64,000 nt of DNA from Methanobacteriota archaeon (GTDB lineage: Archaea; Thermoplasmatota; Thermoplasmata; SG8-5; JAGLSY01): the NCBI GenBank assembly GCA_020696385.1, contig JAEHCQ010000005.1, positions 104,311 through 168,310 on the forward strand. Direction: 5' to 3'. Both the position numbers and the translations under genes were made by a program. Shown in pieces: positions 26,589 to 57,082 of this stretch. The notes under the pieces are model-generated. The model had not been told where the DNA came from and did not search any database. It saw nothing but the letters and a program-made list of their open reading frames with translations. Numbering within the stretch: position 1 is the stretch's first letter; each line of letters opens with the position of its first letter.

Positions 26589-26636
26589 TTAATTTATCTC
26601 CATTTATTAAATTGTTAATATATTATTGCGCATATA

Positions 26637-27443
26637 TTATTTATATTCATCTGGCAGATCGCATTCATCAGGCCCATCATAATCGTGTTCTGATGAGTAC
26701 ATCTTGCGCATTGGCCTCTCACGACTCATCTCCTCATAGGCTTGGGCCACGAGGCCAGCAGTTCTCCCCATTAGGAAAAATGCCTTGCCCAGACGGTGAT
26801 CGAAGCCCATATCGGACATAACGGCGGCGATAGCCCCATCCACATTGATGGGTAGCTTGCGACCAGTCTGTGATTCCAATTCCACCTCAATAGCCTTGGA
26901 GAGCTCCACATGCTTGTCAGCGATCTCGTATTCCGCGGAAAGCGCGAACAGCTTTCCGGTCCTTGGATCCGACGTATGAACTCTGTGGCCGAAGCCTGGT
27001 AATCTCTTTTTCTGTTCTCGGGATTCGGCAACTATCTGCCTGGCGACCTCGGTTATTTCGAGGTCCTCTCCATTCGCCCTGATGACACCTTCCTGAAGAA
27101 GGAGCGCGCCCTTTTCGATAGCTCCACCGTGAACATCGCCAACTGCCATGATGCCAGCGGCTACCGCGGTTGGGAGCGGGACACCGGAAGAAGCGACGGT
27201 ACGCGCCGCCCTTGCTGAAGGCGGCGTTATCCCGTGATCGATGGATGATGTAAGAATAGCATCCATCATCTTTCCCTCATTCTCTGTTGGCATCCTGCCG
27301 CTCAGTATCAGAAATACATTGTGAGAGAAGGGCACATTGCCGATAAGATCCTCCTGCCTGTAGCCACGAGTTACGATATGATTGGGTTTGACAGTGGTTA
27401 TGCCAGTCTTCCAAATTGGGTCATCTTCTGCCAAGAAGCTCAA
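26637..27443 (-). CDS. ccl: Citryl-CoA lyase (citrate-synthase-family C-terminal fold)
   Basis: WKTGIT..PNHIVTRGY, DHGITPPSA, HGGA, PGFGHRVH..DPR, PINVDGA; 268 aa; TTG start overlaps the upstream citF stop. Confidence 0.85.
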   Translation of the reverse strand: MSFLAEDDPIWKTGITTVKPNHIVTRGYRQEDLIGNVPFSHNVFLILSGRMPTENEGKMMDAILTSSIDHGITPPSARAARTVASSGVPLPTAVAAGIMAVGDVHGGAIEKGALLLQEGVIRANGEDLEITEVARQIVAESREQKKRLPGFGHRVHTSDPRTGKLFALSAEYEIADKHVELSKAIEVELESQTGRKLPINVDGAIAAVMSDMGFDHRLGKAFFLMGRTAGLVAQAYEEMSRERPMRKMYSSEHDYDGPDECDLPDEYK

Positions 27444-28981
27444 TCCTCCCTTTTCACTTCGCGGACCACATCGGTCACGGTCCCATCTCTGAACTTGATC
27501 ACACCAACGAATTTATCCGTGTACTCAAGTGGCTCGGGAGCGCCAGTGATATCATAGGCCATGTCCCTGAGAGCCTCAATTGGCTTTGGATCGAACTCAG
27601 CCAGGAGCTTCCAAAGGTCCTGCCTTTTCGGGTTAATTGTAATACCCTGGTCTGTCGCGATCACATCCACGCATTCGCCAGGTGTTGTTACAGTTGTTAC
27701 CGAATCCCTCACGATGGGATTCGTTTTCCTGACTATCGGAGTTGTTATGAAAGTGACCTTCGAGCCAGCAGCCGCATCTGGATGTCCTCCACTGCCGTGC
27801 AGGAGAAGTCCATCCGAGTGCGTGTTCACATTCACATTGAAGTCCACATCCACCTCTGTGGCTCCCAGGAAACAAGCGTCCTGCTGATGGGTTATGCAAC
27901 CTCTTGAATGCGGATTTCCAAAGTGATAGTGCGATACCTCGACATGATCTGGATCGTTCAGAAGTGAATCGATGGCCGGAATATCGAATGCCTGGGCATC
28001 CAGTATCTTTCTCAGCGTGCCACCGTGAAGCATGTCCACCACCTGGCCGGTTATCCCACCCATGGCGAAACTGCCCACGACGCCTTTCTCCAGCATCCTC
28101 TCATGAAGGAACTTGACAACTGCCAGTGACATTCCACCGGCTCCCGCCTGGAAGGAAAATCCATCTTCCAGCTGGCCGATGGCATCCATCGCATCCACAA
28201 CCTGCTGAGCGATCTTAAGGCGTACAGGATCTTCTGTGATCTTCATCGTGCCAGTGGCGATTCCCTTTGGATCTCCAATATTGTCCACATTGACAACAAA
28301 GTCCACCTGATGCTCCGGAATACTAATTGGAGTGCATGGGTATGGCTGAAGATTATCCGTGATTATCACAACTCTGTCAGCGAACCAGGAGTCTGCTATT
28401 GCGAATCCCATTGGCCCGAACTTCGACTCACCCAGTACACCATTGCAGTTACCGGAATCATCAGACCCGGAGGCTGCGAGGAAGGCAACGTCAATGTGCA
28501 TATTGCCTCTTTCCAGATCAAGAGTTCTTGCACCATGTGTCCTGATGACAACTGGCTCGACGCATGGATTCTCCGATATGTACTTCCCGAGGGGACCATT
28601 CAAATTACCCTCAAAGCTGGTGACAACACCGTTCTTGATGTGCTCGACAAGTGCTTCTGTGTGAATTGCAAAAACAGATGAATGGCGCATTCCGATATTC
28701 TTGATGCCTTTCCTGGCGATCTCCTCCAGCACCATGGCGACGACATAGTCCCCATTCCTCAGGTGATGGTGAAATGAAATATTCATCCCGCTCTTCAAGC
28801 CAGACTTGTCAATTGCCTCGGATATTGATGATAAAAGCTTCTTCTTTCCAGGATGGCTAGACCATATCTTCCTTGCTATGGCATTGCCCCTCGGTGTTGT
28901 TGCAAATGCTCCTTTAAAGGGCTCCAATTCTATACTGCCTATCTTCTCAGGGATCTCCCTGCCAAGCGCGTTCATTACCAT
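27440..28981 (-). CDS. citF: Citrate lyase alpha subunit / citrate CoA-transferase, copy 1
   Basis: NALGREIP, SFHHHLRNGD, RTHGAR, FSFQAGAGG, LGATEVDVDFNVNV, GGHPD, FRDGTVTD. Confidence 0.92.
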   Translation of the reverse strand: MVMNALGREIPEKIGSIELEPFKGAFATTPRGNAIARKIWSSHPGKKKLLSSISEAIDKSGLKSGMNISFHHHLRNGDYVVAMVLEEIARKGIKNIGMRHSSVFAIHTEALVEHIKNGVVTSFEGNLNGPLGKYISENPCVEPVVIRTHGARTLDLERGNMHIDVAFLAASGSDDSGNCNGVLGESKFGPMGFAIADSWFADRVVIITDNLQPYPCTPISIPEHQVDFVVNVDNIGDPKGIATGTMKITEDPVRLKIAQQVVDAMDAIGQLEDGFSFQAGAGGMSLAVVKFLHERMLEKGVVGSFAMGGITGQVVDMLHGGTLRKILDAQAFDIPAIDSLLNDPDHVEVSHYHFGNPHSRGCITHQQDACFLGATEVDVDFNVNVNTHSDGLLLHGSGGHPDAAAGSKVTFITTPIVRKTNPIVRDSVTTVTTPGECVDVIATDQGITINPKRQDLWKLLAEFDPKPIEALRDMAYDITGAPEPLEYTDKFVGVIKFRDGTVTDVVREVKRED

Positions 28982-41920: not shown

Positions 41921-42898
41921 ATGTCAGTCTCTATTATAGGCACACGTGGGTGCGGAAAATCTACATTCATCGGACTTCTCCATCAGGGTATGGAAATGTA
42001 TACAAACAAGAATCCAGATAATTTCGTTTATTATGTAACTGCTGAAGTGGGTGATAAGATCCTGGACATAAGGAACAACCTGCTCCAGGGAGAATATCCC
42101 GCTGCCACCACTCGGCATCAGCTGGAACAATTGAGATTCCTCATGGGTTTCAAACCAGTGGGTGTGGAGAAGGTAGTCAATCTCGTTAAGAACTTCTCAT
42201 CCTTCGGCCAGTACGGAGATTACCTGGGTATGATCCTCAGTGTTTATGATATCGCGGGAGAGGATATCCAGGAATTCAAGATCAATAAGCAGGTGACGCA
42301 GATCCTGAAGCAGGTCTTCGAGTCCAATATCCTTGTTATCATTGTGGATTGTGCTAAGTTCACCAATGCCACCAGTGGCAGAAAATACGTGGACATGCTC
42401 GAATATGACAAGGAACTGGCTGTCATCATAGCTGCCTATGTCGAATACAGAAGCAAGGGCAAGTTCAAGGAGAAAGTGAACCCCATCTTCGTATTCGCAA
42501 AGATGGACGCACTGGACACAGAAATTGCCAGTAATTACTTCGACAAGCTGGAAAGAAAATACGATGATAAATACAATTACGATACAGGCAATGAGCTTAT
42601 GGAATCCTACCTCAGTGCTTCAAGAGCCGCAGTATATGGGGCGCAGAAAGTTGGCGTGCCATTGGAGACCGCGAAGTTCTTCTACAGCTGGGTTCAGGAA
42701 GACAAGATCGACGGAGTTGCCCAGGCTGGTGCACAGCATAAATTGATGATCACAAAGCCGGATGGCGGACATACAAGAAATGTATTCCCGGATCACATGT
42801 ACGAGGAGTTCCTGAATTACATCAGAACACTGTCATACATGTACTCGGATCCAAAGGAACATGTCGAGGATATCTTCGGTAAGGTCGGCGGCAAATAA
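41921..42898 (+). CDS. TRAFAC-class GTPase domain protein (double-GTPase-like)
   Basis: G1 GTRGCGKST, G2 PAATT, G3 YDIAGE, G4-like AKMD; 325 aa. Confidence 0.75.
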   Translation: MSVSIIGTRGCGKSTFIGLLHQGMEMYTNKNPDNFVYYVTAEVGDKILDIRNNLLQGEYPAATTRHQLEQLRFLMGFKPVGVEKVVNLVKNFSSFGQYGDYLGMILSVYDIAGEDIQEFKINKQVTQILKQVFESNILVIIVDCAKFTNATSGRKYVDMLEYDKELAVIIAAYVEYRSKGKFKEKVNPIFVFAKMDALDTEIASNYFDKLERKYDDKYNYDTGNELMESYLSASRAAVYGAQKVGVPLETAKFFYSWVQEDKIDGVAQAGAQHKLMITKPDGGHTRNVFPDHMYEEFLNYIRTLSYMYSDPKEHVEDIFGKVGGK

Positions 42899-42942
42899 GA
42901 ACATGCCAGTTCACGATCCCTATCTCAAAGGTGGTAGCGCGT

Positions 42943-45207
42943 ATGCAGGATGAACTTCATATAGGTGAATTCGACAATAATCCCTTCACAATAGAGGGCG
43001 GTAAATTCCTTACTGGCCGAACCGCGGTCATGGGGATGAGCGGCTCTGGCAAGAGTTATCTCATCGGAGTTCTGTGCGAGGAGCTTTGCAAGGCGGACCT
43101 TCCCTTCATCATTATCGATCCAGAGGGAGAATACAAGAGCCTGAAAGAGAAGTTCGATATTGTCTGGGCCTGTAATGACCCGGAAGCTGATGTGCTTCTC
43201 AATTTCCAAATATGCGAGAAGCTGGCAGAGGTCGCCGTCAATAAGAACCTCCAGCTTATTTTTGACACATCCGAGTCGAGTAATGAGTTCGACCTTGTGG
43301 AAGAATTCCTCAAACATTTTTACATTATCGAGGACAAGGTAAGAAAACCCATGCTTCTAATAATGGAAGAAGCAGACAGGTTCGCTCCCCAGAGCAAGGG
43401 CGATAGGATCGACGAGCTGATGGAAATAAGCAGGCGCGGTAGAAAGCGAGGCATCGGCCTTGTGATCGCCACCCAGAGACCTGCGATGGTGGACAAGAAT
43501 ATCTTATCCCAGTGCGGAAACCAGTTCATCGGCAGGCTGAGAACGGAGAATGACCTGAATGCGGTCAGCCTCTTCTTCAGGTCAAAGTCCACACTCAATA
43601 CAATTCCAGATCTGGAAGACGGCCATTTCTACTCAATGGGCGATATTTCTTCCACCATCCAGAACGTGCATATCAGAACAAGGGAGACCACACACGGTGG
43701 CGGAACTCCCGGAAGAGCCAGCAGTAAAAAGAATGAACTGAAAGACCTGAAAATATTCCAGGACAAGCCGATGGTGATGCCATCGACACCATCACCGCCA
43801 ATAGCTGGATCTCCTAATCTCGTGATCGAGGATGTTTTCCTCATCTACAATGATGGAAGATTGATCAATCATCAAACTCGTAGGCTCAAGCCGGATGTGG
43901 ACAATGAGATACTGAGCAGTATGTTCACGGCAGTCCAGAGCTTTATCAAGGATTCTTTTGGAAGTGGTGGCAGGACGAAGGTTCTCGAGCGTCTGGACTT
44001 TGGAGACAATTCGGTATTCATCGAGCATGGTGAGAATTGTTATCTCGCCATGGCCGCGATGGACATTGGGGAGGAGGTACTGCAGGAGCAGCTCAAATGC
44101 GCCAGCAGGGACATATCCAGAGAATATTCCGCCCCCTTGCGAAAGTGGAACGGGGACTTCGATGAATTCGCTGGTGTGGAATCTTATATCCAGAAGCTTC
44201 TGGCAGGAGAATACAAAAAAGGATGTATGCTCATCAATCCTTCGAAGGCTGCATCAACCGGATCAGAGATCTCGGCTTCAGACATGAAATCCAAAACCGA
44301 GCCAGTGGTGGAGAAAGCAGATGAAATATCTGATACAATTCAAGATCCGGGAAGCAAGCCAGCTCCCTCGATCATTAATAATATTAGCAGTAGTAATAAC
44401 AATAAAGGAAGAGATAAAATGGAAATAGATCATTTTGTGTGGTATCCTATCCACGGAAAGGGGTACCAGGATAAGCCAGTAGCGATATCGGGGGATTTCA
44501 ATCCAGGATTGTTCACCAATGTGTTCAAGAAGGAGTTCGCTCCGCTTATGATGAGTTACAGTCAGAAGGATTATCGTGGCTTCATGCTCTTTGACAAGCC
44601 CAATATACGCCATGTTCTCTTCTCCTTCATCTACCACAAGGTCATCGACGAATACGGTAGAAAAGGGGTGATCCATCATTCTGCCATCATTGACAGAAAG
44701 GATCTGCAGAGCGGTAAAGTTTCCTTATTCGACATCGAAGAGGCTATGAACAAGTTCGACGAGGCAAACCCCGCGCCAAAGGGAGACATACCGCCTTTGG
44801 AAGTTCCAGCCTATGAGCCTGGGCAATACAGATACCAGGACAAGATATTCAAGTACATTTCAAAGGCTGCTGTCGAAATACTGGCAACCAGGATGATGAC
44901 CGCCAGCCGTAACCGAACATCATTCAGATGCCAGGGCGCGGGCACGAAGGCCAGGAAGAATATCGCATTATATCTGGTCGAACTGCTGGGCTTCAGGGGT
45001 GGAATACCGATCTCATTCACGACAGAGAGACCGATATCGGCTGAATATTACGGCTTCTTCAATCTCGCGGTTACCGAGCGCGCGATAGCACCAGATGCGA
45101 ATGCCGAGGACTGGGCAGTGATCAACTGGGATGAATTGAATGTCGGCATGCCCAGGGTGGGCGGCAAAGAGGAAGTTTACAAATTAATTGATGATGCCTT
45201 CTCCTGA
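42943..45207 (+). CDS. HerA/DUF87-type ATPase fused to a longin/roadblock-like domain and a C-terminal GAP1-N-like domain
   Basis: Walker A GMSGSGKS, IDPEGEY, Walker B LLIMEEAD, RGRKRG, ATQRP; middle IEDVFLIYNDGRLI..LSSMFTAVQSFIKDSF; C-terminal DEYGRKGVIHHSAI; GTG start at 42931 also possible. Confidence 0.75.
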   Translation: MQDELHIGEFDNNPFTIEGGKFLTGRTAVMGMSGSGKSYLIGVLCEELCKADLPFIIIDPEGEYKSLKEKFDIVWACNDPEADVLLNFQICEKLAEVAVNKNLQLIFDTSESSNEFDLVEEFLKHFYIIEDKVRKPMLLIMEEADRFAPQSKGDRIDELMEISRRGRKRGIGLVIATQRPAMVDKNILSQCGNQFIGRLRTENDLNAVSLFFRSKSTLNTIPDLEDGHFYSMGDISSTIQNVHIRTRETTHGGGTPGRASSKKNELKDLKIFQDKPMVMPSTPSPPIAGSPNLVIEDVFLIYNDGRLINHQTRRLKPDVDNEILSSMFTAVQSFIKDSFGSGGRTKVLERLDFGDNSVFIEHGENCYLAMAAMDIGEEVLQEQLKCASRDISREYSAPLRKWNGDFDEFAGVESYIQKLLAGEYKKGCMLINPSKAASTGSEISASDMKSKTEPVVEKADEISDTIQDPGSKPAPSIINNISSSNNNKGRDKMEIDHFVWYPIHGKGYQDKPVAISGDFNPGLFTNVFKKEFAPLMMSYSQKDYRGFMLFDKPNIRHVLFSFIYHKVIDEYGRKGVIHHSAIIDRKDLQSGKVSLFDIEEAMNKFDEANPAPKGDIPPLEVPAYEPGQYRYQDKIFKYISKAAVEILATRMMTASRNRTSFRCQGAGTKARKNIALYLVELLGFRGGIPISFTTERPISAEYYGFFNLAVTERAIAPDANAEDWAVINWDELNVGMPRVGGKEEVYKLIDDAFS

Positions 45208-45546: not shown

Positions 45547-45572
45547 TCGATAAACATATGTCTAGCTGAGCA

Positions 45573-47078
45573 TCATTTCACAACTTGGAACTTGTAAACA
45601 GGATCCCCATCCAGTTCTTCCGCATTCTGTACTATCTCCGGAAGGTCATACAGTTTCCTGTTCTCATTGTAGATTTTGAGAAGCGGCTCCCAGTATCTGA
45701 TCGAATCCTGATACATGATCACATCATCATGCTTGAGTATCTGGCATATTGAGAAAAGACCACCGGGATATGTCCTGATGACATCGATGATCCTCTGATT
45801 CTCATTGTACCATCTGTAGAATTTATTGCCTTTATTCCACTTCATGATGAATTTTGTAAGATTGTTCCGGACATCTTCATCATTGGCGATCCAGACCATG
45901 ACCTTGACTATGTCATTGTCCGCCAAGAGGTCGATCTTCTTCACCAGCGGCCCGTAATCCTTATTGTCCCAGTCATTGAAGATATCCTTCCACCCTTCAA
46001 TGTTATCCGGGGCCTGGATACCATGCTCGGCGATAAAAGCAGCTTCCTCCGCTTGCTTCTTCGCCTCCTCGTCCATCTTCTTCTTTTCCTCAAGCTCCAG
46101 GATACGGAGTTTCTCTTCCTCGACCTTTCTCTTCTCCTCTTCGATCTTCATCTGAGCCTCTTCTTCCTTCCTGGCCAACTCCTTCTGCTCCATCTCAAGC
46201 CTCACTTGCTCCTTCCTCTCGGCGATCTTCAGGGCTTCCATCTCCATGGCCTGCCGTTTTTCCGCGGCAGCCTTGGCCTGGATCTCGATCTTGCGCCTTT
46301 CCTCTTCCTTGATCCTGAGGTGATGCTCCATCTTCAGGCGCTCTTCTTCTTTCGCCTTCAGAAGGCGACCGGCTTTGGCAGCGTCAGCCCGGCTTTTTTC
46401 GTATTCGATCTTCGCCCTGGCTTCCTCGCCCTTCTGGAGCTTCATCTTCATCTTAGCAGTGTGTGCTTCCTGCTTTTTCAGCTTGGCCGCGCTTTCATTC
46501 CTGAGCCTTTCCTCGACCAGAACCTGCGCCTGAAGCTGGGCTTTCAATCTTTCCTCTTCCATGAGCTTGGCCTTCAGCTCATGTTGGGCGCGTAGGTCTT
46601 CCTGCTTTTCCATGTCCAGCTCTTTTTTCAGGCGGATCTCCTCGGCCATCTTGAGCTCATGTTCTTTTCTCAATGCCTCGGCCTCTTCCTTCTCCTTGGC
46701 CCAGCGTGCGTCCCGCCTCTCTATCTTTTTCTTCAGATTGGTGATGTCGCGCTTGGCATCGCTCAGTTTGTCTGGGTCTTGTAATTTGTAATCAATTGCA
46801 TAAAAATCAGATTCCAGGGTGCGGATATCCAGTGCCCGGAGCTTCGTGCGCTGGGTGTTTATCTCCAAAAGGGCTTTCTCAAAACTTGCAAAGGCCTCCT
46901 CCACATCGGAAATTTTGCCATCATCTATGATCTTCGACAGACAGTTAACTACAAAACCCTGCTTTTTCCAGAATTCCAGCTTCACCCTGAAGCCATCCCT
47001 GGCCTCCATGTCCTCACGCTCTGTTGTTCTATTCTCCGCAACCCGATCGATTATTGATTTGGCACACATTTCAATCAC
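45573..47078 (-). CDS. Coiled-coil protein with globular N- and C-terminal domains
   Basis: ~250 aa E/K/R/A-rich helical core; no family recognised. Confidence 0.65.
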   Translation of the reverse strand: MIEMCAKSIIDRVAENRTTEREDMEARDGFRVKLEFWKKQGFVVNCLSKIIDDGKISDVEEAFASFEKALLEINTQRTKLRALDIRTLESDFYAIDYKLQDPDKLSDAKRDITNLKKKIERRDARWAKEKEEAEALRKEHELKMAEEIRLKKELDMEKQEDLRAQHELKAKLMEEERLKAQLQAQVLVEERLRNESAAKLKKQEAHTAKMKMKLQKGEEARAKIEYEKSRADAAKAGRLLKAKEEERLKMEHHLRIKEEERRKIEIQAKAAAEKRQAMEMEALKIAERKEQVRLEMEQKELARKEEEAQMKIEEEKRKVEEEKLRILELEEKKKMDEEAKKQAEEAAFIAEHGIQAPDNIEGWKDIFNDWDNKDYGPLVKKIDLLADNDIVKVMVWIANDEDVRNNLTKFIMKWNKGNKFYRWYNENQRIIDVIRTYPGGLFSICQILKHDDVIMYQDSIRYWEPLLKIYNENRKLYDLPEIVQNAEELDGDPVYKFQVVK

Positions 47079-47181
47079 CAGTCCCCACTTTCTTGAAAAC
47101 TAGAATGAAATGTTGATGTATTAAGTTTTGCTCTTACTCTTGCTCTTGCAAAGGTTATTACGTGCATAAGGACATCCTGCT

Positions 47182-47676
47182 TTGAACAATATGCTTCCCG
47201 AATGGCTGATCCTGGATCTTACGCAAAATCAACTGTATGGCCTTGTCTTTCTTATAGGCTCTTTCACAGTGGCCACCCTGAGCGATCTGAAGTACATGAA
47301 AGCACAATCGGAATTCGTCGAGATCTGGGTGCTGGCCTTCATTGTTTTTCTGGTTATCGACATCTGGAAATGGGATTCGCTGGATCAGACCCAGACCATG
47401 ATAAAATGGGCTATTATTTTCATATTCATGCTCCTTTCCCATCATTCGATCGGGGTCATATTCAAACTGGCTAGGGGAGATGTATTCGCATGTGCGGCGG
47501 TCATGGCACTCATGTCACCAGCTTTGATAGTCGTCTTCATCATAATTCTAAAAGTATCCGACCTATTGTTCAGGCCCATTCTGAGAAAGTTCGGGAGCGG
47601 CAATGCCTACCCCTTCATGCCCATTGTCATGTGTGGGACATTGGCGATAATGGGAATTGGACTGTATCTGGCGTAG
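47182..47676 (+). CDS. Polytopic membrane protein resembling A24 prepilin peptidases
   Basis: Several TMs; LSDLK and ARGD aspartates; C-terminal YPFMP. Confidence 0.5.
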   Translation: MNNMLPEWLILDLTQNQLYGLVFLIGSFTVATLSDLKYMKAQSEFVEIWVLAFIVFLVIDIWKWDSLDQTQTMIKWAIIFIFMLLSHHSIGVIFKLARGDVFACAAVMALMSPALIVVFIIILKVSDLLFRPILRKFGSGNAYPFMPIVMCGTLAIMGIGLYLA

Positions 47677-47763
47677 ACAGATACTGGCTAACACTAATTC
47701 TAATACAAATCGAGCAATTTGTTGATAGGAGTGAGAGTTATCGCATTATCTATCAGAGAGCAT

Positions 47764-49638
47764 TCAGAGAGCATTCCCACAGCTTGGGCAGGCTTTCCAG
47801 CCAGGCTGTGTCTCGGACCCACAATGTGGACAAGATGGTTTGCTGGACAGGGAACCTCCGCAAGCCGGGCAAGCTTTCCAGCCCGGCTGGGTGTCAGCCA
47901 TACAGCTTGGGCACTTATTGCCGCTCTGTTGCTGCTGAGCCGGCTGCACGCCTTGCTTGGATTGATCCACTGTGATGACATTAACTGGCTGCTGGCCAAC
48001 TCCATATCCTCCGCCCCCCACATATTGTGGTACATTCTGTTTGGATGATTCCATCATCTTCGCAGCCTGGCCAGTCATATCCACCTGATGATTTCTCTCG
48101 CGGTCCTCCGCGTCGCGGTAGGTGCTGATATTGTGCTTCTGACCCTCCGAGCGCATGAATTCCTCGGATGCCTCGCCTCCAACTGTTCCCAGCTGTCGCT
48201 TGGTAGCTTCCTGCTGTAGGGACTGCATCTGGATGGTCTTCTGATCGTACATTTTCTGAAGTATCTCCAATTTTTCAGTTGGAGCATCGATGATCTTCAT
48301 CTCCAGTTCGTGGATATCCGTTTGTAGCTGAGATATCTGGGCGTCAGCTGTCGTGACACCCATCTGCTGGGTATCCACATCCATCTTCTTCATGTCCTCG
48401 ACATGATCCTGCTCCTGAGCCTCCCTCATTCGCTTCGCTTCTTGAACCTGAGCAAATGCGTCCATGGCTATCTGAGCCTCGCCTTTTTCCTTGTCGATAT
48501 CAGCCTGATTCTGCGCCCTCTGGATATCCACATCGGTCATTCCAGCATCGCGTTGCTGGCGTATGTTCTCATCATGAGCCATACCGGACATGTCACGATC
48601 ATGCGTCTGGGCCATACTGTCCCTCTCCAGGGATGATGTCAATTGCATGGATGCCAGGCGATCGGCTCCCGCTTGCCCTCCGAAGGCAAGCGCCCATTCC
48701 TTCTCATTACTTGTCTTGTCAACTTCATAATCGCGATTCAGGATATTGATGCTGGCCTTCATGTCAAAGTCCTTGTCGAACTCCGCTTGTTCGAAGATCT
48801 GCGTCTGTTTCTTCTTGTGGGCTGCGAGTGCGTCACTGGCTGTCCTGTCAAAGACCATGTATAACTTGAGTAAGTTCAATCCCCACATTTCCATGGTCTT
48901 TCTTAGCTCGACCTCGGCCGTGGTCTCGATCTGCTTGATGAGATCCAGGTTCCCCTTGATATCACTGGCTTCAACCGCTGACAATTGTGGTGTGAGAACG
49001 CCTACCAGTGCCTCATCGTTTATCAATTCCTCAAGATCGGATTTGAAAAGGAACTTGCCAACTGCCATATCTGTCCTGTTCTGGAATGTGAGCTTCTTGA
49101 GTATGCCGCCAGTGAAGATATTCCTGTTCCTACCCCACCATGTGCTGTGCTTCTCATTCTGTGTTGGCTGGTATGGTTCGGCAGACCTCATCAGATTTAT
49201 GATCCTGGTGACATTGTTCTGGTTTATCTGGACACGCATGGTGCAGGTTCCCTTGACCTCTTCATTATCGCGTGAAAGTATACCTTGAACTTCCCATTCT
49301 GGCTGACCGTTCTGATCGACCTCGGGTTTTCCAGAAGGATCGAGCTTCCACATGCTCTTTCCGATCTGAAGGTTCATATCCATTGGAACCGTTGAAACAA
49401 ATAGAAGTTGAACGGATTCTCCTCCGCCCATCTTGGACCTGAACCAGTCGATGACCCCTTGCCTTGATACTTCCAGCTTGGTCTGTGTGAGAACATCCTC
49501 GATCTTGCCGTTCCTGATGTACATCACGGCTTCTCCAGGACCTACTATTGCTTCCTTTAAGAAATTCGGTATCTGGTCTCTGTCCACTAATTGAGCGATT
49601 ACTTCTTCGCCATCTATGTTATTCCACATTTGTATCAT
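47764..49638 (-). CDS. SPFH/band-7-like domain plus coiled coil plus double zinc ribbon protein
   Basis: IVGPGEAVMYIRNGKIED SPFH-type N-terminus, ELRKTMEMWGLNL, long coiled coil, C-terminal CPSC..CPACG..CPHCG..CPSCG. Confidence 0.75.
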   Translation of the reverse strand: MIQMWNNIDGEEVIAQLVDRDQIPNFLKEAIVGPGEAVMYIRNGKIEDVLTQTKLEVSRQGVIDWFRSKMGGGESVQLLFVSTVPMDMNLQIGKSMWKLDPSGKPEVDQNGQPEWEVQGILSRDNEEVKGTCTMRVQINQNNVTRIINLMRSAEPYQPTQNEKHSTWWGRNRNIFTGGILKKLTFQNRTDMAVGKFLFKSDLEELINDEALVGVLTPQLSAVEASDIKGNLDLIKQIETTAEVELRKTMEMWGLNLLKLYMVFDRTASDALAAHKKKQTQIFEQAEFDKDFDMKASINILNRDYEVDKTSNEKEWALAFGGQAGADRLASMQLTSSLERDSMAQTHDRDMSGMAHDENIRQQRDAGMTDVDIQRAQNQADIDKEKGEAQIAMDAFAQVQEAKRMREAQEQDHVEDMKKMDVDTQQMGVTTADAQISQLQTDIHELEMKIIDAPTEKLEILQKMYDQKTIQMQSLQQEATKRQLGTVGGEASEEFMRSEGQKHNISTYRDAEDRERNHQVDMTGQAAKMMESSKQNVPQYVGGGGYGVGQQPVNVITVDQSKQGVQPAQQQQSGNKCPSCMADTQPGWKACPACGGSLSSKPSCPHCGSETQPGWKACPSCGNAL

Positions 49639-50156
49639 TATTTCCACCCCCTCAAGAAATCTTCCCTATCCTTGTAAGAATTCCTTGAACCGGTAATATA
49701 CTGGCGAAGGCTTCTGAGTTCCTTCACGGCATCAATTTCATCGCCATTCATTATCATTCCCTCGATAACTCCCGTGGCTTCGGTGACATTGACGATATTT
49801 TCCAAAATGTTGAGATCGAACTCCACCAGGGTCTTGAGATCACCTTCACCTGGCGATCTTGATTTGTTAGTTGAAAAGAAACTGTACTGATGGCCAACCA
49901 CGGACATTGTGATATCATTGGAGAAGATATCCAGCTCGTCCTTGACCTTTTTAAGTGAGTTTATGGAGTCCGTATCCTTCTTGTCATAGAGTATGTCCAG
50001 GATATTCCGCGTATTCTTCACGGACTTGTCGATCTCGGCCATCAACTTCTTTCTGACCAGATTGTCATCCTCTTTTACCTTATCCTTTCTGTATCCCGTG
50101 TACCCGGACACCATTTTGCAAACAGAAGTTATCGCAGTGATCAGAACCATATTCAT
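49638..50156 (-). CDS. Conserved helical hypothetical protein coupled to the SPFH gene
   Basis: SGYTGYRKDKVKEDDNLVR, YSFFS, LVEFDLNIL; TAATG stop/start overlap with the SPFH gene. Confidence 0.7.
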   Translation of the reverse strand: MNMVLITAITSVCKMVSGYTGYRKDKVKEDDNLVRKKLMAEIDKSVKNTRNILDILYDKKDTDSINSLKKVKDELDIFSNDITMSVVGHQYSFFSTNKSRSPGEGDLKTLVEFDLNILENIVNVTEATGVIEGMIMNGDEIDAVKELRSLRQYITGSRNSYKDREDFLRGWK

Positions 50157-50213
50157 ACTCCCCTGTGTTCTTATGTATTGAAAGGTTATTTAAGTTAATA
50201 AGGGTTTCGGGAT

Positions 50214-52103
50214 ATGGAGGTTGAATACTTGATCCATAAAGGGTTCGGAAGGACAAGAGCCATTGTCATATTATGCATGACCTTTCTTTTATTCAGTGGT
50301 CTCTCTCCACTTATGATACATAATGCCAGTGCCAATACAGTCTCTGGTTACATATACCCGGATGAATACGTGATCTATTACATCGATGTCGATTCCTATA
50401 CATATATCGACATCTCGGTAAGCTGGTATGACAGCTCCAATGATATCGATCTCTACCTCTACGACGAGTCTTCCACATTGGTTGACGATAGTGAACTTAC
50501 AAGTACAAACACCGAGTCCATATACTACTATCCATCAAGCACTGGCTCTTACGCCCTTTACATATATGGATACAGTATCTCCGGCAGTGAATATTATACC
50601 CTTTACTGTAACTTCTATGCCTCCCTGAGCACGGTGGACGATACACCAACGACCACGGATGACAGCTACGAGCCAGATGATTCATATTCGTCCGCATCGT
50701 ACATATCAGATGGCAGTGTCCAATCACATAGTATTCTGGATGGTGGGCTGGATGTCGATTGGGTGACCTTCACCATATACGAGACCAGTGATGTGGTCAT
50801 TGAAACATCAGGTTCAAGCGGCGATACCCAGATATATCTGTACGATGACTCGGGAGTGCCATCCGTCTACTCCGATGTGAATGATGATGGAGGAACTGGC
50901 TCCTTTTCAAGAATCAGCAAGAATTTCCTGGCCTCGGGCACTTATTATGTTAAGATAATAGAATATGGCCAGGATCAGGAAATATCATCATATAGTGTTG
51001 AATTTTCAGCCGAGCCCAGCCTCGATCTCGGTATTGGCGACATCGAGAACCTGGTCTATCTGGACTATATCTGCTTTTTCATATTCTTTATAATTTTCAT
51101 AGTGATAGTTGCGGGAATAAGATCATCCCGCAAGAAGAAAAAGAAAAAGAAGCAAAGGAATCTGGAGCAACAGATCCAGTCCCAGCATTATCAATCTCAA
51201 CAACAATACCAGCAGCAACAGTCTAGACAAGCTCAGCAATATGCTCCACAGCAGGCTCCGCGTGTTCAGCAGCAACAAGTCAAACAGACTCAGCAGACCC
51301 AGGGGGTTCAGCAGACCCAGCAGGTCCAGCAAACCCAGCAACCACAATACCAGCAACAATACCGAACCCCAGTGCCAGCACCAGTAGTATCCACTCGGCA
51401 AGATACTGCTAAAGAAGATCGTTCAAGGCAAGAGGCGGAGCAGAGGCAGAGGGACGAGAGAGAAAGGAAGGAGAGGTTCGAAGCTGACAAACGAGTGAGG
51501 GAAGAGAATGAGAGAAAAGCCAGGGAGGAAAAAGGACGCCTGGCTCGGATCGAGGAAGAGAAACAGAGATCAAGAAGCTATGACACACCTCAGGCCGAGA
51601 TGGACAGGCGAGCTACACAATACGAATCCATGGCCAGTATGCAGGAGAAGGAAAGCGAGAACATCCACGCGATGCTGCATACCAGTGAGGAATATGGAAG
51701 GCCATTACCTCCACCGCCACCACTTGATATGCCTCCGGCAGATGATCTCCATTCCCAGCCGAGCGAGAAGATGACCAAAGCTCTGGAAGATTCATGCAAG
51801 CTCATCATGCCAACATATCTTGAGCCGGATACCACATCCGAGATAATCATAGACATTGAGAATGATTCTGGAATGAACCTGGGCAATGTCACTGTCGACC
51901 TCTCTGATCTGCAGAAATATTTCGAAATTCAGGATAAGATAGAATTCCCGGGTATTCGAAATGGCATGACCCTGAGAGAAGATGTCAAATTCAAACCCAA
52001 ATACGATGAGGGATCCTTCCCCGTGGTGGTGTCCATAGTTTCAGAAGGTTCCACTGTGAAATTAAATTACACGATCAAGGTCGGAGGCACGGAGATATAT
52101 TAG
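50214..52103 (+). CDS. Single-pass receptor-like protein: two PPC-like extracellular domains, TM, Q-rich and coiled-coil linker, Ig-like IKVGGTEIY domain
   Basis: Signal ..ASA; NDIDLYLYD and DDSYEPDD..DVDWV..GDTQIYLYD PPC motifs; TM plus RKKKKKKK; C-terminus IKVGGTEIY. Confidence 0.8.
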   Translation: MEVEYLIHKGFGRTRAIVILCMTFLLFSGLSPLMIHNASANTVSGYIYPDEYVIYYIDVDSYTYIDISVSWYDSSNDIDLYLYDESSTLVDDSELTSTNTESIYYYPSSTGSYALYIYGYSISGSEYYTLYCNFYASLSTVDDTPTTTDDSYEPDDSYSSASYISDGSVQSHSILDGGLDVDWVTFTIYETSDVVIETSGSSGDTQIYLYDDSGVPSVYSDVNDDGGTGSFSRISKNFLASGTYYVKIIEYGQDQEISSYSVEFSAEPSLDLGIGDIENLVYLDYICFFIFFIIFIVIVAGIRSSRKKKKKKKQRNLEQQIQSQHYQSQQQYQQQQSRQAQQYAPQQAPRVQQQQVKQTQQTQGVQQTQQVQQTQQPQYQQQYRTPVPAPVVSTRQDTAKEDRSRQEAEQRQRDERERKERFEADKRVREENERKAREEKGRLARIEEEKQRSRSYDTPQAEMDRRATQYESMASMQEKESENIHAMLHTSEEYGRPLPPPPPLDMPPADDLHSQPSEKMTKALEDSCKLIMPTYLEPDTTSEIIIDIENDSGMNLGNVTVDLSDLQKYFEIQDKIEFPGIRNGMTLREDVKFKPKYDEGSFPVVVSIVSEGSTVKLNYTIKVGGTEIY

Positions 52104-52131
52104 GCTGGATGGCCTTTGAGATGGTGATACA

Positions 52132-52950
52132 ATGAAAGTCGCGTTTAGATCAGATGTCGGAAAACTAATGCAGATCAATGAGGATATTGCAGGATGGGTG
52201 ACCTTGAGGACATCCGGGATGTCAGAGATGTTGAATACCCCTGGTACCTCTGAAATGTCTGTGATATCAAAAATATCACAGCAACCAGGCATTGATCGAA
52301 TTGATATTCTTTTCGTATCGGATGGAATGGGCGGCCATAAGAAAGGAGATGTGGCAAGCAGGATAGCCACCCAATACCTGACATACCTCGTCCAGAACGC
52401 CATATCCCGATCAGAGGGCGACATAGTTCAGGAGCTGGTCGTGAAACTGCCTGGCTACATGAAGAACATAAACACTCATTTGAGATCCCAGGCAAGCGGC
52501 AATCCAGACCTAAGTGGAATGGGATGCACGCTCACTGCCGCCATAATGATCGGAAACAGCATGGTGATAGTCCATGCTGGTGATAGCCGGCTTTACCACA
52601 TAGCTGACGGGCGATTGCGCCAGGTGACAAAGGACCATTCTTTTGTTCAAGAGCTTCTTGATAAAGGTGAGATACAGCCAGATGAGGCTTTTGACCATCC
52701 AAAAAAGAATAAAATTCATACCGCCCTCGGCCCCAAGGATGACATAAATGCTGATGCCTTTGTCGAGGTCTGGGAAAGTGGTACATTACTCTTCTGTACT
52801 GATGGCCTGAATGACATGCTGAGAGATCACGAGATACTGGATATCGTGAATGCCAATCCAGATCCCGAAGATATGTGCGAGAAATTGGTCGAGGCGGCTC
52901 TTGAAAAGGGCGGGCATGATAATGTCAGTGTGTTGGTTGCCAGTAAATGA
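52132..52950 (+). CDS. PP2C/Stp1-family Ser/Thr phosphatase
   Basis: SDVGK...NED, VSDGMGGH, MGCTL, HAGDSRLY, TKDHS, CTDGL, GGHDNVS. Confidence 0.95.
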   Translation: MKVAFRSDVGKLMQINEDIAGWVTLRTSGMSEMLNTPGTSEMSVISKISQQPGIDRIDILFVSDGMGGHKKGDVASRIATQYLTYLVQNAISRSEGDIVQELVVKLPGYMKNINTHLRSQASGNPDLSGMGCTLTAAIMIGNSMVIVHAGDSRLYHIADGRLRQVTKDHSFVQELLDKGEIQPDEAFDHPKKNKIHTALGPKDDINADAFVEVWESGTLLFCTDGLNDMLRDHEILDIVNANPDPEDMCEKLVEAALEKGGHDNVSVLVASK

Positions 52951-53048
52951 TCGGATCTGAAATTTGAGGAGATGGTAAAATTATAACAGACTGGATATTC
53001 GACAATGTTTTCCTTTTCATATTCTTATTCTTCTTTTTATTCTTCGCC

Positions 53049-53630
53049 ATGGCCTATGTCATGTACTACATATTCGTGAAGAAGAACCCCGCGCTTGAAC
53101 ACCTGGGTGTCGGCAAACAGATGGACAATATCCTCAAGCCCACACAGCAACAACAGCAACATCAACAGCAGCATCCGAATTATCAGACACAACCACAACA
53201 TCAAGCATACCCTGGCTCTGCACCACCTGTGAGCCAGGGGCAGCGCGTGCAACCGCAACAACAGCGACCAGCTCCCTCACCCCCTGGAGAGGGGATGTCC
53301 AGTATCAACCTGAAAGATCATTATTCGATCCAATTACCGCATTTTATCAATTCTGGCATGACTGAATCGGTCATAGTCACCCTGTATAACAATACCAGCA
53401 CGGAAATAGATGACATAAGTATCGATCTTTCAGACATGACGGATTACTTCGATATCGAGGGAGAGGTGAAAGACTATCGATTGAAACCAGGAGCCGAGAT
53501 CGTCAAGACCCTGAGGATTAGGCCAAAATTTGAAGAAGGTGTGTTCCCATTCAAGATAAAAATAAGTACTGGTTCGATCTATGTAGAAGACGAGCACTCG
53601 ATCAAGGTCGGGGGCACGGAGATCTATTGA
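53049..53630 (+). CDS. Membrane-anchored Q-rich protein with IKVGGTEIY domain; true start probably near 52980
   Basis: Frame open upstream to 52968, encoding a hydrophobic helix; Q/P-rich linker; same C-terminal domain as 50214 and 53640. Confidence 0.8.
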   Translation: MAYVMYYIFVKKNPALEHLGVGKQMDNILKPTQQQQQHQQQHPNYQTQPQHQAYPGSAPPVSQGQRVQPQQQRPAPSPPGEGMSSINLKDHYSIQLPHFINSGMTESVIVTLYNNTSTEIDDISIDLSDMTDYFDIEGEVKDYRLKPGAEIVKTLRIRPKFEEGVFPFKIKISTGSIYVEDEHSIKVGGTEIY

Positions 53631-53639
53631 GGTAGGAAA

Positions 53640-54500
53640 ATGAGCAATCAAAAAGAATTCACAGGAAGTTGGATACTATTGGTCCTATTGTTCATCATAT
53701 TCTTTCCACTTGGGATTATCTATTTCTTTGTCATGTTGAAAGATAGAGGTTCAGCCTATGCTCCTCCATATTATCAGACAGTCCAGACCAATCAGACAAG
53801 AAATGCATATGCACCACCTCAATATCAGCCGAGTACCCAGCAACCACCAGCACAGTATTCTGGACAGAGCACCCAGAGACCATCCGGTCAAAATACCAAT
53901 CAGACAAGAAGTGCACAACAGGGTCAGTATTCACAGCCCTCACAATCATCACAGCCAGCCCAGAATGTGCCTCAGTACGAACAGCCAGCTCAATACAGCC
54001 AGCCACAGTACAAAGCTCCACAATACAATTCACCTCAGCAAACGAATCAAATGCAAAAACCACCAGCCTACACAACATCGCAGACAACAAGCCAGAGCCC
54101 ACCAAATGTGGCTAGAGCTCCTGCGGCCCAGCAGGCTCCAATAGCAGTAAGGCCTCAGAAAATCATGTCCGAGGGCGATATCAGCTCCCTTTACAGTCTC
54201 CAGGTTCCCAGCTTCATGGATCCTGACATGACGGAAGAGATCATGATCAGGCTGAACAATGACTCTGGCGATGATATCGAGAACATGCACATAGATTTCT
54301 CGGATCTCAGAAGCTTTTTCGACATAGATGAGGATGTCAATATCCCCTACTTTGGAGATGGTGTCGTACTGGAGAGAAGGGTGAATATCAAGTCGAAGGA
54401 AAGCTCTGGCAGCTTTCCCGTTAGAGTGAAAATATCCGCGAATGGAAAGACAGTCACGGAGAGGTTCACTATCAAAGTTGGTGGAACCGAGATATATTAA
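53640..54500 (+). CDS. Membrane-anchored Q/P-rich protein with IKVGGTEIY domain
   Basis: FTGSWILLVLLFIIFFPLGIIYFFV TM, Q/P/S/T/Y-rich linker, same C-terminal domain. Confidence 0.85.
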   Translation: MSNQKEFTGSWILLVLLFIIFFPLGIIYFFVMLKDRGSAYAPPYYQTVQTNQTRNAYAPPQYQPSTQQPPAQYSGQSTQRPSGQNTNQTRSAQQGQYSQPSQSSQPAQNVPQYEQPAQYSQPQYKAPQYNSPQQTNQMQKPPAYTTSQTTSQSPPNVARAPAAQQAPIAVRPQKIMSEGDISSLYSLQVPSFMDPDMTEEIMIRLNNDSGDDIENMHIDFSDLRSFFDIDEDVNIPYFGDGVVLERRVNIKSKESSGSFPVRVKISANGKTVTERFTIKVGGTEIY

Positions 54501-54543
54501 GTAAGCAATTCCCGATTTTGTCAAGACTAATTAATAGATTACG

Positions 54544-56967
54544 TCACTTATTCGTGTTGAAGGCGACTCCATCCTGCAAATTGATGTCACCGCCGCCTTC
54601 CCCAATGTTCGACTTGTAGATCACACTGTCCTTAATATCGACATTGTAGGTGACCTGGGTCACCAGCATCGCCTTTTCCAGCCGGATCGCTCTGTCAATA
54701 GATTCAAACTGTCCCTGCAGGAATTTTTCTGCAATATCCGGGTCTATGGAATAACCATCGAATCTGAACTCGATGGTGCCATCCTCTTTTCTCCAACCAC
54801 CGCATAACATCAGGAAACTGAGCGGACTCTTCGTGGGCTTTCCAGCGTATAGAAGCTGGAAACTGTTCACGTCCTCGTACTTGCCCACGCAATGGAGATT
54901 GCTGCAAGCATCGGATAATCGAGATCTGGCCTTCTCTATCGTGATATCACTGTACATGATCTGACGCGATGCCCTTGGCAAAGTCTTGATGGACATCATG
55001 AATTCATGCTCTCTCATCTCCAGTGGCTCGATGAGCGGCATGATGTTTCCAGTGTCCACCACGGGCGCGTTTATGCGCCTTTTCTTGCCCATGTGATCGT
55101 GATATGAAATGTCAAAGTGTATCTTGGCCTTCATCGCTCTCTTGGCCTTCATGATGAAGGTTATTGCCTGCGATTCATTGGAACCCAGGTATGGAATATC
55201 CCGGACTCGCGAATCTGGCTGTAATAATTCCAGGCCTTCGGGTATGTCCAGTGTGATAGATACCCGATTGTGAGTGTATGGAGATACGTTATTCAGCTTA
55301 AGCTGAACATTGATCTTATCACCATCAATGGTCCTGTCAACCTCGGCATCCAGACCTCCTGAACTGGGTCTGAAGCTCTCGCCGTATCTGAAGTACAGGT
55401 CCTCGTCACGGACCAGTCTTCCGCCAACTCTGACTTTCATCGGAACCGTGAAGTCCCCGCCAGAGCCTGCATCCTTCAGGGTCATCTTTCTTTCATGGTA
55501 TCTTTCCTGACCTGGCATCAGATCGTATTTGAGGTTCAAATCCTTATCACAGGTGAATAATTCACCCGCGCCCACGTAATCGACAACGATATTCTTCCAT
55601 GGAAGATCCGAATTGTTCTTCACTGTCGATCGGAGATCAAGCTGATTGCCATTCCAGTCCCATGATGTGGTGATCTCCAGATCATTGATCTCCTCATAAA
55701 ATTCCTGTATCTTGTTCTTGTCGCTGATGAATTCAAGGTGAATGTAAGGCTCTCTGGGCTTATCCGGATTATAGACCAGCCAGATATCGTCCCCGTCCTG
55801 AAGTTTTTTGAATTTACCGGAAATTACACGAGCCTTGTTCAGGAAAGTTCCATTGTGACTGTCGCAATCGGTTATCACCCAGTCCCCGCTTCCCGCGGCA
55901 TTCATGATCTCCGCGTGTTTCGGGCTGGACACGTATTTCGCAGGCAGGTATACATCATTCTGCGGTGACTTGCCGATCCTGTTCTTCGATTTTTCCAGAA
56001 AGAACACCGTCCCGGGCTTCACACTAGGGTCCTGGCTGTTTATCACTTTGATGAGCGGTTTGAATCGAATTATATCCTCGATACCGGACAGCGTGACCTC
56101 CACATCCCTCAATCTGAATCTCAATTGAGGGTGGCGCTGGGTACTCCCCTGTATCAGGTTGCTGAATATACTAGCTCTGCGAAGACTGAGATAATCCTTG
56201 TCATTTGCCAGGAATGGTGGGGATGAGCTGGATAGGAGGAAATACAATGTCGCGCCCAATGAGAAGATATCATTGGCCTTCGTGGGCTTTGTCCTCGCCA
56301 TGACTTTTCCGGGCGGAGGTGGGGGAGGGAAATTATGGTTATTGTTGCTATGTCCAGGAGGTGGTGGTGGGAATCTGGAATTGTTATTGTGATTATTGTG
56401 ACCACCATTCTGTGAAAGCTCTGGTGGTGTGTATGAGCCATGGGACACATTGGCAGTCACGAGCTCATCATGATGGACATTATAGGCAGTTCCGAAGTCA
56501 ATGAGAATGGGTACCTTGTTCGGGCCCAGCAGGATATTTTTTGGGCAAATATCCCTGTGGATTATTCCCTCACCATGCATGTATGATATGACATCGCACA
56601 GTCTTTTCAAAATGTCCAGGGCTTCCTCATTGGTCGCTTTACAGCAATCATACACCTCTGCCAGGCTCTTTCCCTCGACATAATTCATCACAAGACCATT
56701 GCTCTTGTGAATGTACTCCACGAACTTCACGATCTGGGGATGATCCAGCATGGCCATGACATTGGCTTCCTGCCTGATGGAATCACAATATAGATCATAC
56801 TTATGCTTGACATCATGCTTTGGGAGTTTCAGGACCAGCTTATCATCACTGCCCACGGCCTTGACAACATATAGTATGCTCATGCCGCCGCGACCCAGCT
56901 CGCGCTCGACCACGTATCTTTCCTCTACGATGTCGCCTTTGGACAGAACTCTCGAACCATATAGCAC
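54544..56967 (-). CDS. Hanks-type Ser/Thr kinase plus FHA plus Ig-like and adaptin-appendage-like C-terminal domains
   Basis: LGRGGMS, LVLK, HRDICPKN, DFG, YTPPE, DIFSLG; FHA RIGK...VSSPKHA...DCDSHNGTFLN...LQDGD. Confidence 0.9.
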   Translation of the reverse strand: MLYGSRVLSKGDIVEERYVVERELGRGGMSILYVVKAVGSDDKLVLKLPKHDVKHKYDLYCDSIRQEANVMAMLDHPQIVKFVEYIHKSNGLVMNYVEGKSLAEVYDCCKATNEEALDILKRLCDVISYMHGEGIIHRDICPKNILLGPNKVPILIDFGTAYNVHHDELVTANVSHGSYTPPELSQNGGHNNHNNNSRFPPPPPGHSNNNHNFPPPPPPGKVMARTKPTKANDIFSLGATLYFLLSSSSPPFLANDKDYLSLRRASIFSNLIQGSTQRHPQLRFRLRDVEVTLSGIEDIIRFKPLIKVINSQDPSVKPGTVFFLEKSKNRIGKSPQNDVYLPAKYVSSPKHAEIMNAAGSGDWVITDCDSHNGTFLNKARVISGKFKKLQDGDDIWLVYNPDKPREPYIHLEFISDKNKIQEFYEEINDLEITTSWDWNGNQLDLRSTVKNNSDLPWKNIVVDYVGAGELFTCDKDLNLKYDLMPGQERYHERKMTLKDAGSGGDFTVPMKVRVGGRLVRDEDLYFRYGESFRPSSGGLDAEVDRTIDGDKINVQLKLNNVSPYTHNRVSITLDIPEGLELLQPDSRVRDIPYLGSNESQAITFIMKAKRAMKAKIHFDISYHDHMGKKRRINAPVVDTGNIMPLIEPLEMREHEFMMSIKTLPRASRQIMYSDITIEKARSRLSDACSNLHCVGKYEDVNSFQLLYAGKPTKSPLSFLMLCGGWRKEDGTIEFRFDGYSIDPDIAEKFLQGQFESIDRAIRLEKAMLVTQVTYNVDIKDSVIYKSNIGEGGGDINLQDGVAFNTNK

Positions 56968-57082
56968 GATTACCAGTATATCGGATGATAATTAATAACT
57001 TACTGATAGACTTGACCACCGCCTCAGGACTAAATATCAAACATCACAAAACAATAAGACATTGAAGGCCCATCAGCCTTCA

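Follow-up and report, generated by a model that had tools for sequence, protein, structure and literature searches.

Euryarchaeal loci linked to the ESCRT endosomal sorting machinery encode Ser/Thr kinases with adaptin-type IG repeats, phosphatases and FHA proteins, together with adaptin appendage (IG+TBP) proteins and SPFH-coiled-coil-Zn-ribbon proteins; in the available part of that account, these loci are proposed to sort phosphorylated proteins and the Thermoplasmata ESCRT is termed minimal (Makarova et al., 10.1101/2024.02.06.579148). Here we describe a locus in a 64,000-nucleotide (nt) window, i.e., the whole stretch of DNA analysed, from contig JAEHCQ010000005.1 of a Thermoplasmata archaeon (G000, the genome under study). 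In this locus, three open reading frames (ORFs), called A, B, and C, encode proteins with a common C-terminal domain (CTD) that ends in the same nine residues, IKVGGTEIY, directly before the stop codon. The CTD genes lie in an island together with genes for a PP2C-type phosphatase and for a Hanks-type kinase carrying an FHA domain.

The island resembles the ESCRT-linked loci in holding accessory parts of the same kind, namely a kinase with FHA and sandwich domains, a PP2C, a Zn-ribbon protein and, as a lead from an Atlas score of 0.90, an SPFH-like protein. In addition, relatives that combine the domain with a kinase and a C-terminal helical part, for example in Thermococcus sp., fit the kinases described there. 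Two differences stand out. Searches of G000 with Vps4_C (PF09336) and Snf7 (PF03357) at E <= 0.01 gave no match to Vps4 or ESCRT-III, the Snf7 control being weak, with Sulfolobus only and below the cut-off. Moreover, a GGTEIY-tailed C-terminal family is not described in the available part of that account, and our literature search for "GGTEIY" returned no mention. The fold class and the kinase association fit the recently described archaeal theme.

The most striking property of the locus is the conservation of the tail. When A, B, and C are aligned over their last 127 residues, identity to the first sequence is 31-39%, and the nine terminal columns are invariant; the alignment and the translation table 11 ORF listing agree with the sequence-only reading of this DNA, which had described a shared CTD with identical last nine residues in three ORFs. 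That reading had also noted that the tail codons of A, B, and C differ at synonymous sites only, and we found the same when we compared nine exact-tail gene copies as DNA (three from G000, four from G001 of the same genus, and two from the Woesearchaeota genome G697). Six of the nine tail codons vary among these copies, all synonymously and without a single non-synonymous change, and the copies use all four Thr codons as well as all four codons of the first Gly. Because the tail codons vary only synonymously, the peptide appears to be under purifying selection; recent gene conversion as the source of the identical tails is ruled out by the synonymous differences.

A profile of the A, B, and C copies, searched against 1.84 billion cluster representatives, matched 104 proteins at E <= 1e-3, of which 69 also passed E <= 1e-10. 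We counted tail classes on the best 70 representatives: 53 end in the exact IKVGGTEIY, eight in one- or two-residue variants of it (TEVY, TDIY, TRIY, VK.., IKI..) and five in V[EK]G[KRM][ED][SA]Y, all terminal, whereas two have the motif plus an extension beyond it and in two (P0029 and P0067) the search pattern did not find the motif in the last 60 residues. The terminal form [IV]K[VI]GGT[EDR][IV]Y-COOH is retained in 61 of the 70, and Thr is kept in all 61 of these canonical tails, with Ser in its place in two variant tails. The 56 canonical members of at least 105 amino acids (aa) share, on pairwise average, 38% identity over the domain body and 97% over the tail. The strong selection on the free C-terminus that had been proposed from the three local copies is therefore seen across the homologs.

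None of the three CTDs scored above the cut-off of any Pfam or NCBIfam model; the sole match was that of B to AP3B1_C (E 0.026, 14.9 bits; cut-off 27). An AlphaFold2 model calculated from a 35-row alignment (mean pLDDT 89) is an all-beta sandwich whose last strand stops at residue 121, the V of IKV, with GGTEIY following as coil at a block confidence of ~77. The model places T-E-I-Y in exposed coil past this strand, offering an exposed Thr with a residue at +3, so that the structure prediction gives no sign of a buried Thr. Foldseek searches against the PDB returned only generic immunoglobulin (Ig)-like sandwiches with TM-scores of 0.4-0.6, among them a sialidase linker, TRAP-beta, complement MG, the alpha-adaptin ear sandwich (E 4.8e-4), and PapD-like domains. 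Neighbours found with a protein language model include CARDB/NPCBM_assoc clusters (scores 0.88-0.89); the CTD reaches neither of the two Pfam models. It is comparable to CARDB and NPCBM_assoc in size and strand pattern, but those domains are typically extracellular, whereas the CTD is predicted to be cytoplasmic and has a defined tail. Judging from the model, the CTD is an unannotated Ig-like beta-sandwich of ~100 aa without a close solved relative, best explained as a domain of the adaptin-appendage/CARDB structural type. In A, B, and C the modelled sandwich stands alone, without a platform subdomain.

The three proteins differ in what precedes the CTD. Protein A starts with a signal-like N-terminus and two PPC ectodomains, followed by a transmembrane (TM) helix, a poly-Lys stretch (RSSRKKKKKKK) directly after this helix, a Gln-rich linker, a charged coil and the CTD. 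The two PPC stretches (Pfam, E 2.5e-7) agree with the earlier assignment of two PPC-like domains to one of the three proteins. In B, a Gln/Pro linker connects a TM helix with the CTD, and in C an N-terminal TM helix is followed by a Gln/Pro-rich linker of ~150 aa. Other type-I family members likewise carry K/R-rich stretches after the last TM helix. The CTD is cytoplasmic by predicted topology, based on the positive-inside rule and on the fact that most family members have no TM or signal-like segment.

The B gene probably starts at a non-ATG codon, either ATT 52980 or ATA 52983, because its ATG at 53049 falls in the middle of the TM helix, the reading frame stays open as far back as 52968, a GAGGAG box lies ahead of the two candidate codons, and the G001 ortholog P0005 begins with MIIDWIFDN at the point equivalent to this upstream start. 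A four-codon mini-ORF (ATG GTA AAA TTA TAA, 52972-52986) overlaps the probable start just past the GAGGAG box.

Describing the tail-bearing proteins as membrane proteins is correct for A, B, and C and does not extend to the family: a TM segment is predicted in 16 of the 61 canonical members and absent from 37, the other eight being short or fragments. A Pfam scan of 32 canonical-tail members detected N-terminal HEAT repeats in 12 and Kelch in two, as well as TPR, LRR, bacterial PH (bPH), DUF835, PPC, and beta-helix+fn3 in one each; the remaining 12 had no N-terminal family. Most carriers are thus predicted to be soluble proteins (HEAT, TPR, LRR, Kelch) and not membrane proteins. The type IX secretion system CTD and PGF-CTERM are C-terminal secretion or sorting domains. 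Such a function implies an exported carrier with the domain outside the cytoplasm, and the 37 carriers without TM or signal-like segment do not have this arrangement.

The kinase encoded next to C has no TM segment. Its Pfam Pkinase match covers only profile positions 1-174, and an Asn/His/Pro-rich low-complexity insert (..GGHNNHNNNSRFPPPPPGHSNNNHNFPPPPPPG..) splits the kinase domain after TPPE (APE-like) at 56100-56400 (residues ~190-290). GarA and OdhI were among the PDB matches of the FHA domain, which, when aligned with GarA and CHFR, retains the Ser, His, and Asn-Gly residues of the phosphothreonine (pThr) pocket. GarA-OdhI and Fha-PpkA-PppA of the type VI secretion system are modules of FHA, Hanks kinase, and PP2C. 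The island is similar to them in encoding kinase, pThr reader, and PP2C together and in the proposed ligand, pT-x-x-hydrophobic; it differs in having the FHA domain fused to the kinase and, as candidate ligand, the invariant far C-terminus of a portable domain.

Residues 410-807 of the kinase were modelled, at a pLDDT of 68, as two sandwiches and an alpha/beta domain. The best bipartite matches of sandwich 2 plus platform are the appendages of gamma-COP, AP2 alpha, and AP2 beta2 and the ear of BBS9, which have sandwich and platform in the same order (Foldseek E 2.5e-10 to 2e-7; VIA Z 12.5-13.8 over 199-221 residues, with deviations of 6-8 Å in these alignments). Residues 543-623 also match PF02883, Alpha_adaptinC2, below its cut-off (E 6.6e-4, 20.4 bits against 27.6), and together with the sub-threshold AP3B1_C match and the alpha-ear match of the CTD, this hints at a likeness to adaptor ears. 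Many carriers, furthermore, resemble adaptin large subunits in being built as HEAT solenoid, linker, and sandwich. On the other hand, identity to the ears is ~10% with a root-mean-square deviation of 6-9 Å, the platform adds little score, and clathrin or coat genes are not present. Since a lone sandwich, TRAP-beta, already scores Z ~13, we regard the ear likeness of the kinase C-terminus as a good lead but not as proof, and homology is not established. An ear-like module corresponding to 54658-55353 (residues ~539-770) also occurs with 22% identity in a 668-aa Thermoplasmata protein without a Pfam family (L023:262-2268, genome G023).

The arrangement had been read from the sequence as a PP2C within the operon and a kinase-FHA gene next door, and this is what we see: the PP2C gene lies between A and B, and the kinase gene is convergent to C (Table 1). 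With gaps of ~30 nt or less, A, PP2C, B, and C are presumably co-transcribed. A single FHA domain, a single PP2C_2 match and, a Bud32-like kinase aside, a single Hanks-type kinase occur in G000, all three inside the island. In G001 the island persists together with the three enzymes, and here too the kinase gene adjoins a CTD gene. The 45553-57048 segment is absent from the syntenic site of G002, a third genome of the genus (93% complete), where the gene for a 111-aa membrane protein directly abuts a DUF1294 gene and the island-flanking genes share 80-91% DNA identity with those of G000; neither FHA nor PP2C was found in G002, and its only kinase match is of Bud32 size (209 aa). The absence from G002 shows that the island is dispensable, and the distribution over the three genomes suggests that the phospho-signalling kit and the tail proteins were gained or lost together within the genus. 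As the three genomes are kin, this co-occurrence counts as one or two independent events only.

Table 1. Features of the GGTEIY island and its proteins (positions in the window).
Feature	Position	Strand	Basis or remark
Island, 11.5 kb	45553..57048	.	Synteny vs G002
501-aa Glu/Lys-rich coiled-coil protein	45573..47078	-	No family match
164-aa multi-TM protein	47182..47676	+	No family match
627-aa protein	47764..49647	-	Pfam, DZR E 6.6e-9
172-aa helical protein, divergent from A-PP2C-B-C	49638..50156	-	No family match
Protein A, 629 aa	50214..52103	+	ORF listing, Pfam (PPC), profile search
A, TM helix	51066-51119	+
A, CTD	51717-52100	+
A, tail codons	52074-52100	+
PP2C-type Ser/Thr phosphatase, Stp1-like	52132..52950	+	NF033484 E 4e-65, below that model's cut-off
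Protein B, probable start	52980..53630	+	ORF listing, G001 ortholog
Protein B from ATG, 193 aa	53049..53630	+	ORF listing
B, TM helix	53007-53078	+
B, CTD	53250-53627	+
B, tail codons	53601-53627	+
Protein C, 286 aa	53640..54500	+	ORF listing, profile search, model
C, N-terminal TM helix	53673-53729	+
C, CTD	54120-54497	+
C, tail codons	54471-54497	+
Soluble Hanks-type kinase with FHA	54544..56967	-	Pfam, structure models
Kinase, alpha/beta platform	54658-55011	-	Model
Kinase, sandwich 2	55069-55353	-	Model
Kinase, sandwich 1	55384-55680	-	Model
Kinase, FHA domain	55780-55980	-	Pfam
Kinase, Pkinase match	56398-56916	-	Pfam

The reading that we favour, albeit tentatively and at somewhat less than even confidence, is that the exposed tail is a putative docking peptide in which the Thr acts as a phospho-switch. 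The CTD would be a portable cytoplasmic handle on many unrelated proteins, with the last strand ending in ...IKV and the six residues GGTEIY-COOH sticking out as a free short linear motif. A, B, and C would display this handle beneath the membrane on long disordered Gln/Pro linkers, A adding its PPC ectodomains. The kinase, which has no membrane anchor of its own, could be recruited to these tethered handles, since it bears two candidate peptide readers, the FHA domain and the adaptin-ear-like sandwich plus platform, as well as a weakly handle-related sandwich. It would phosphorylate the tail Thr, whereupon its FHA domain might hold pT-E-I-Y, in which a hydrophobic/aromatic residue stands at +3; FHA domains have a residue preference at this position. 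The PP2C of the operon would then reset the switch, and the ear-like module may bind the motif in its unphosphorylated state or a different partner. The outcome might be a split receptor kinase or a phospho-dependent sorting device. Speaking for this reading are the tail's predicted exposure, the constant Thr (or Ser), the packing of G000's single Hanks-type kinase, FHA, and PP2C into one island with the carriers, the relatives fused ahead of kinase domains, the retained pThr-pocket residues, the ear-like kinase C-terminus, and the published ESCRT-linked loci with a comparable set of parts. The sequence-only reading had already named the Thr as a candidate phosphosite and FHA ligand, an idea that we consider plausible but unproven.

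Several observations weigh against such a switch. The FHA domain has a Lys at the canonical phosphate-contacting Arg (GK for GR), another departure from GarA-OdhI and Fha-PpkA-PppA, and the link between sandwich 1 of the kinase and the CTD is weak (hmmsearch E 0.05; hhalign E 4.8e-4, probability 32%). Neither FHA nor PP2C was detected in G697, which has the exact tail and whose completeness is not given, or in G036, which is 72% complete, and FHA was not found in the divergent-tail genomes G017, G021, and G010 either; all FHA-negative carrier genomes but G010 are incomplete or of unstated completeness. The proposed linkage of the tail to kinase and PP2C is seen in the islands of G000 and G001, and relatives of the domain are fused to kinases. 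Within G001, a second CTD locus has no adjacent signalling genes (FHA, PP2C). A sister subgroup ends in VEG[KRM][ED]SY and has no Thr. Finally, all nine residues including IKVGG are invariant, which exceeds the needs of a phospho-acceptor and a +3 residue.

Conservation across all nine residues is accommodated more easily if GGTEIY-COOH is a docking motif that acts independently of phosphorylation, with a conserved partner or another copy of the sandwich (in a lattice or hub) as the reader and the kinase link as a lineage-specific add-on. We consider this the chief alternative, only slightly less probable than the phospho-switch. The same tail sits on very different carriers among the 32 canonical members scanned, and it occurs in G697 and G036 without detected FHA or PP2C. 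Among the best 70 representatives, 61 of 63 GG[TS]-type tails are strictly terminal, which suggests that the carboxylate is important. In other family branches the domain ends in another short C-terminal motif (...REK..SLLDLLK-COOH), with one member preceding an AAA ATPase, and the use of alternative C-terminal outputs by the same sandwich supports GGTEIY as a functional short motif and not as part of the fold. Pure docking is harder to reconcile with the strict retention of a hydroxyl residue, Thr or in the two variants Ser, and with the exact co-occurrence, in this genus, of the carriers with the only kinase, FHA, and PP2C. A candidate reader was not found either: the ear/sandwich profile A4 gave no match in G697, G036, G017, G021, and G010, a search that had no positive control and is uninformative.

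The tail could instead be conserved as a structural cap that completes or stabilises the beta-sandwich, since the modelled last strand ends in IKV and terminal aromatic residues often pack on sandwiches. We judge this to be quite improbable. GGTEIY lies beyond the last strand at lower pLDDT, variation is free in the core strands but not in the tail, and tail-less relatives (kinase fusions, the LLDLLK group, and P0067) keep the fold signatures DLS[DE]..YF and PK..G.F. Least credible of all is a processing or conjugation signal, in which Gly-Gly would be cleaved as in ubiquitin-like modifiers or the tail recognised by a tail-specific protease. The Gly-Gly four residues from the C-terminus would suit this explanation, as would homologs with extensions after the motif (G036: GGTEVFGGEEEDDN). 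However, the fold is an Ig-like sandwich and not a beta-grasp, which rules out taking the GG as that of a ubiquitin-like modifier, the island proteins scanned included no E1-like, JAMM, or protease families, and we know of no precedent for a four-residue propeptide on a membrane-tethered domain.

An unlikely extension of the phospho-switch is that the sandwich with GGTEIY-COOH is a portable cytoplasmic cargo/adaptor tag read in a phospho-gated manner by the FHA and ear kinase during archaeal sorting. The soluble solenoid proteins (HEAT/TPR/LRR/Kelch, linker, and ear-type sandwich) would then be "mini-adaptins" operating alongside single-pass receptors.

Relatives outside the canonical group show how the domain has been reused. 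Hanks-type kinases account for 13 of the 29 lower-scoring hits scanned; one of these is from Thermococcus sp., and in each the domain lies 20-49 residues upstream of Pkinase and has kept both fold signatures. In one of them the domain ends in ...IEVGKEESY ahead of the linker, resembling the Thr-less subgroup. A basic stretch followed by an acidic tail of the ...SLLDLLK-COOH type is seen in P0071, P0072, P0078, P0087, P0093, P0095, and P0096; this tail may resemble the MIT-interacting motifs of ESCRT-III proteins. In G036, one copy is fused to an EMC3/TMCO1-type (YidC-like) insertase gene beside secY in a ribosomal-protein cluster (L028:7002-8153, G036:C304), and its tail reads GGTEVF followed by the acidic extension GGEEEDDN.

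The family is rare in reference genomes, with matches in seven of 41 relatives and in six of 401 genomes of the class; at the level of the phylum, G000 was the only genome with a match among 401 sampled. Scanning the genomes of 185,579 species with the tail pattern found only one Thermoplasmata and one Woesearchaeota metagenome-assembled genome. No relatives were detected in metagenome contigs scanned with the domain alignment and then with P0049, or in viral contigs. A word-indexed homolog search on the CTD region left the query alone among 26 candidates, against 104 proteins by hmmsearch, and we treat this result as a limit of the word index. Several metagenomic members share the same longest listed contig of 67.6 kb, which suggests paralog clusters.

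The island comprises nine genes, encoding the coiled-coil, small TM, 627-aa, and 172-aa proteins, A, PP2C, B, C, and the kinase-FHA protein. The 627-aa protein consists of an N-terminal part, a coiled coil, a Gln-rich stretch, and a double zinc ribbon; its N-terminal 300 residues are possibly SPFH/Band-7-like, the Atlas lead mentioned above resting on 173 shared features, and a PDB sequence search with this protein gave nothing useful. PADLOC matched generic kinase, HerA, and PP2C models only, with no match for the CTD proteins, and we did not file the island as a defence system.

Outside the island, the window holds a 758-aa HerA-like protein (42931-45207) whose residues 292-442 (43806-44259) form a domain of ~150 aa without a Pfam match. 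This domain recurs in dozens of large proteins (frames of 200-2,300 aa) in all four family genomes searched; it is a standalone 164-aa ORF in G002, and in G000 and G001 it joins a HerA-type ATPase head to a 315-aa tail within one protein. Immediately upstream of this gene lies a 325-aa ORF (41921-42898) with a sub-threshold Double-GTPase 2 match (E 5.4e-6, 26.7 bits against 27); the syntenic site of G002 lacks a counterpart for most of this ORF. In a 2,404-aa ORF (12530-19744), an STT3 (AglB-type oligosaccharyltransferase) N-terminus is joined to many CarboxypepD_reg-like repeats, and a CARDB protein (11736-12542) is encoded just downstream. At 25047-28981, a gene that covers just the C-terminal part of the citrate synthase domain lies between two CitF (citrate lyase alpha) paralogs.

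An invariant nine-residue C-terminus across ~60 clusters with unrelated N-termini points clearly to a shared molecular reader, and motif-and-reader pairs are poorly known in archaea. The locus offers a compact set of three handles, one kinase with two candidate readers, and one phosphatase. Should the phospho-switch prove false, the CTD would still be a new and easily recognised domain that merits a database model. If the switch is real, it would provide a defined substrate motif for archaeal Hanks-kinase signalling and a concrete ligand for the recently proposed adaptin-like archaeal sorting components. If the cargo-tag reading were also true, the system would be common to Thermoplasmata and DPANN (Woesearchaeota) and would represent a prokaryotic counterpart of ear-domain/short-motif adaptor networks that works without a recognisable Vps4/ESCRT-III core.

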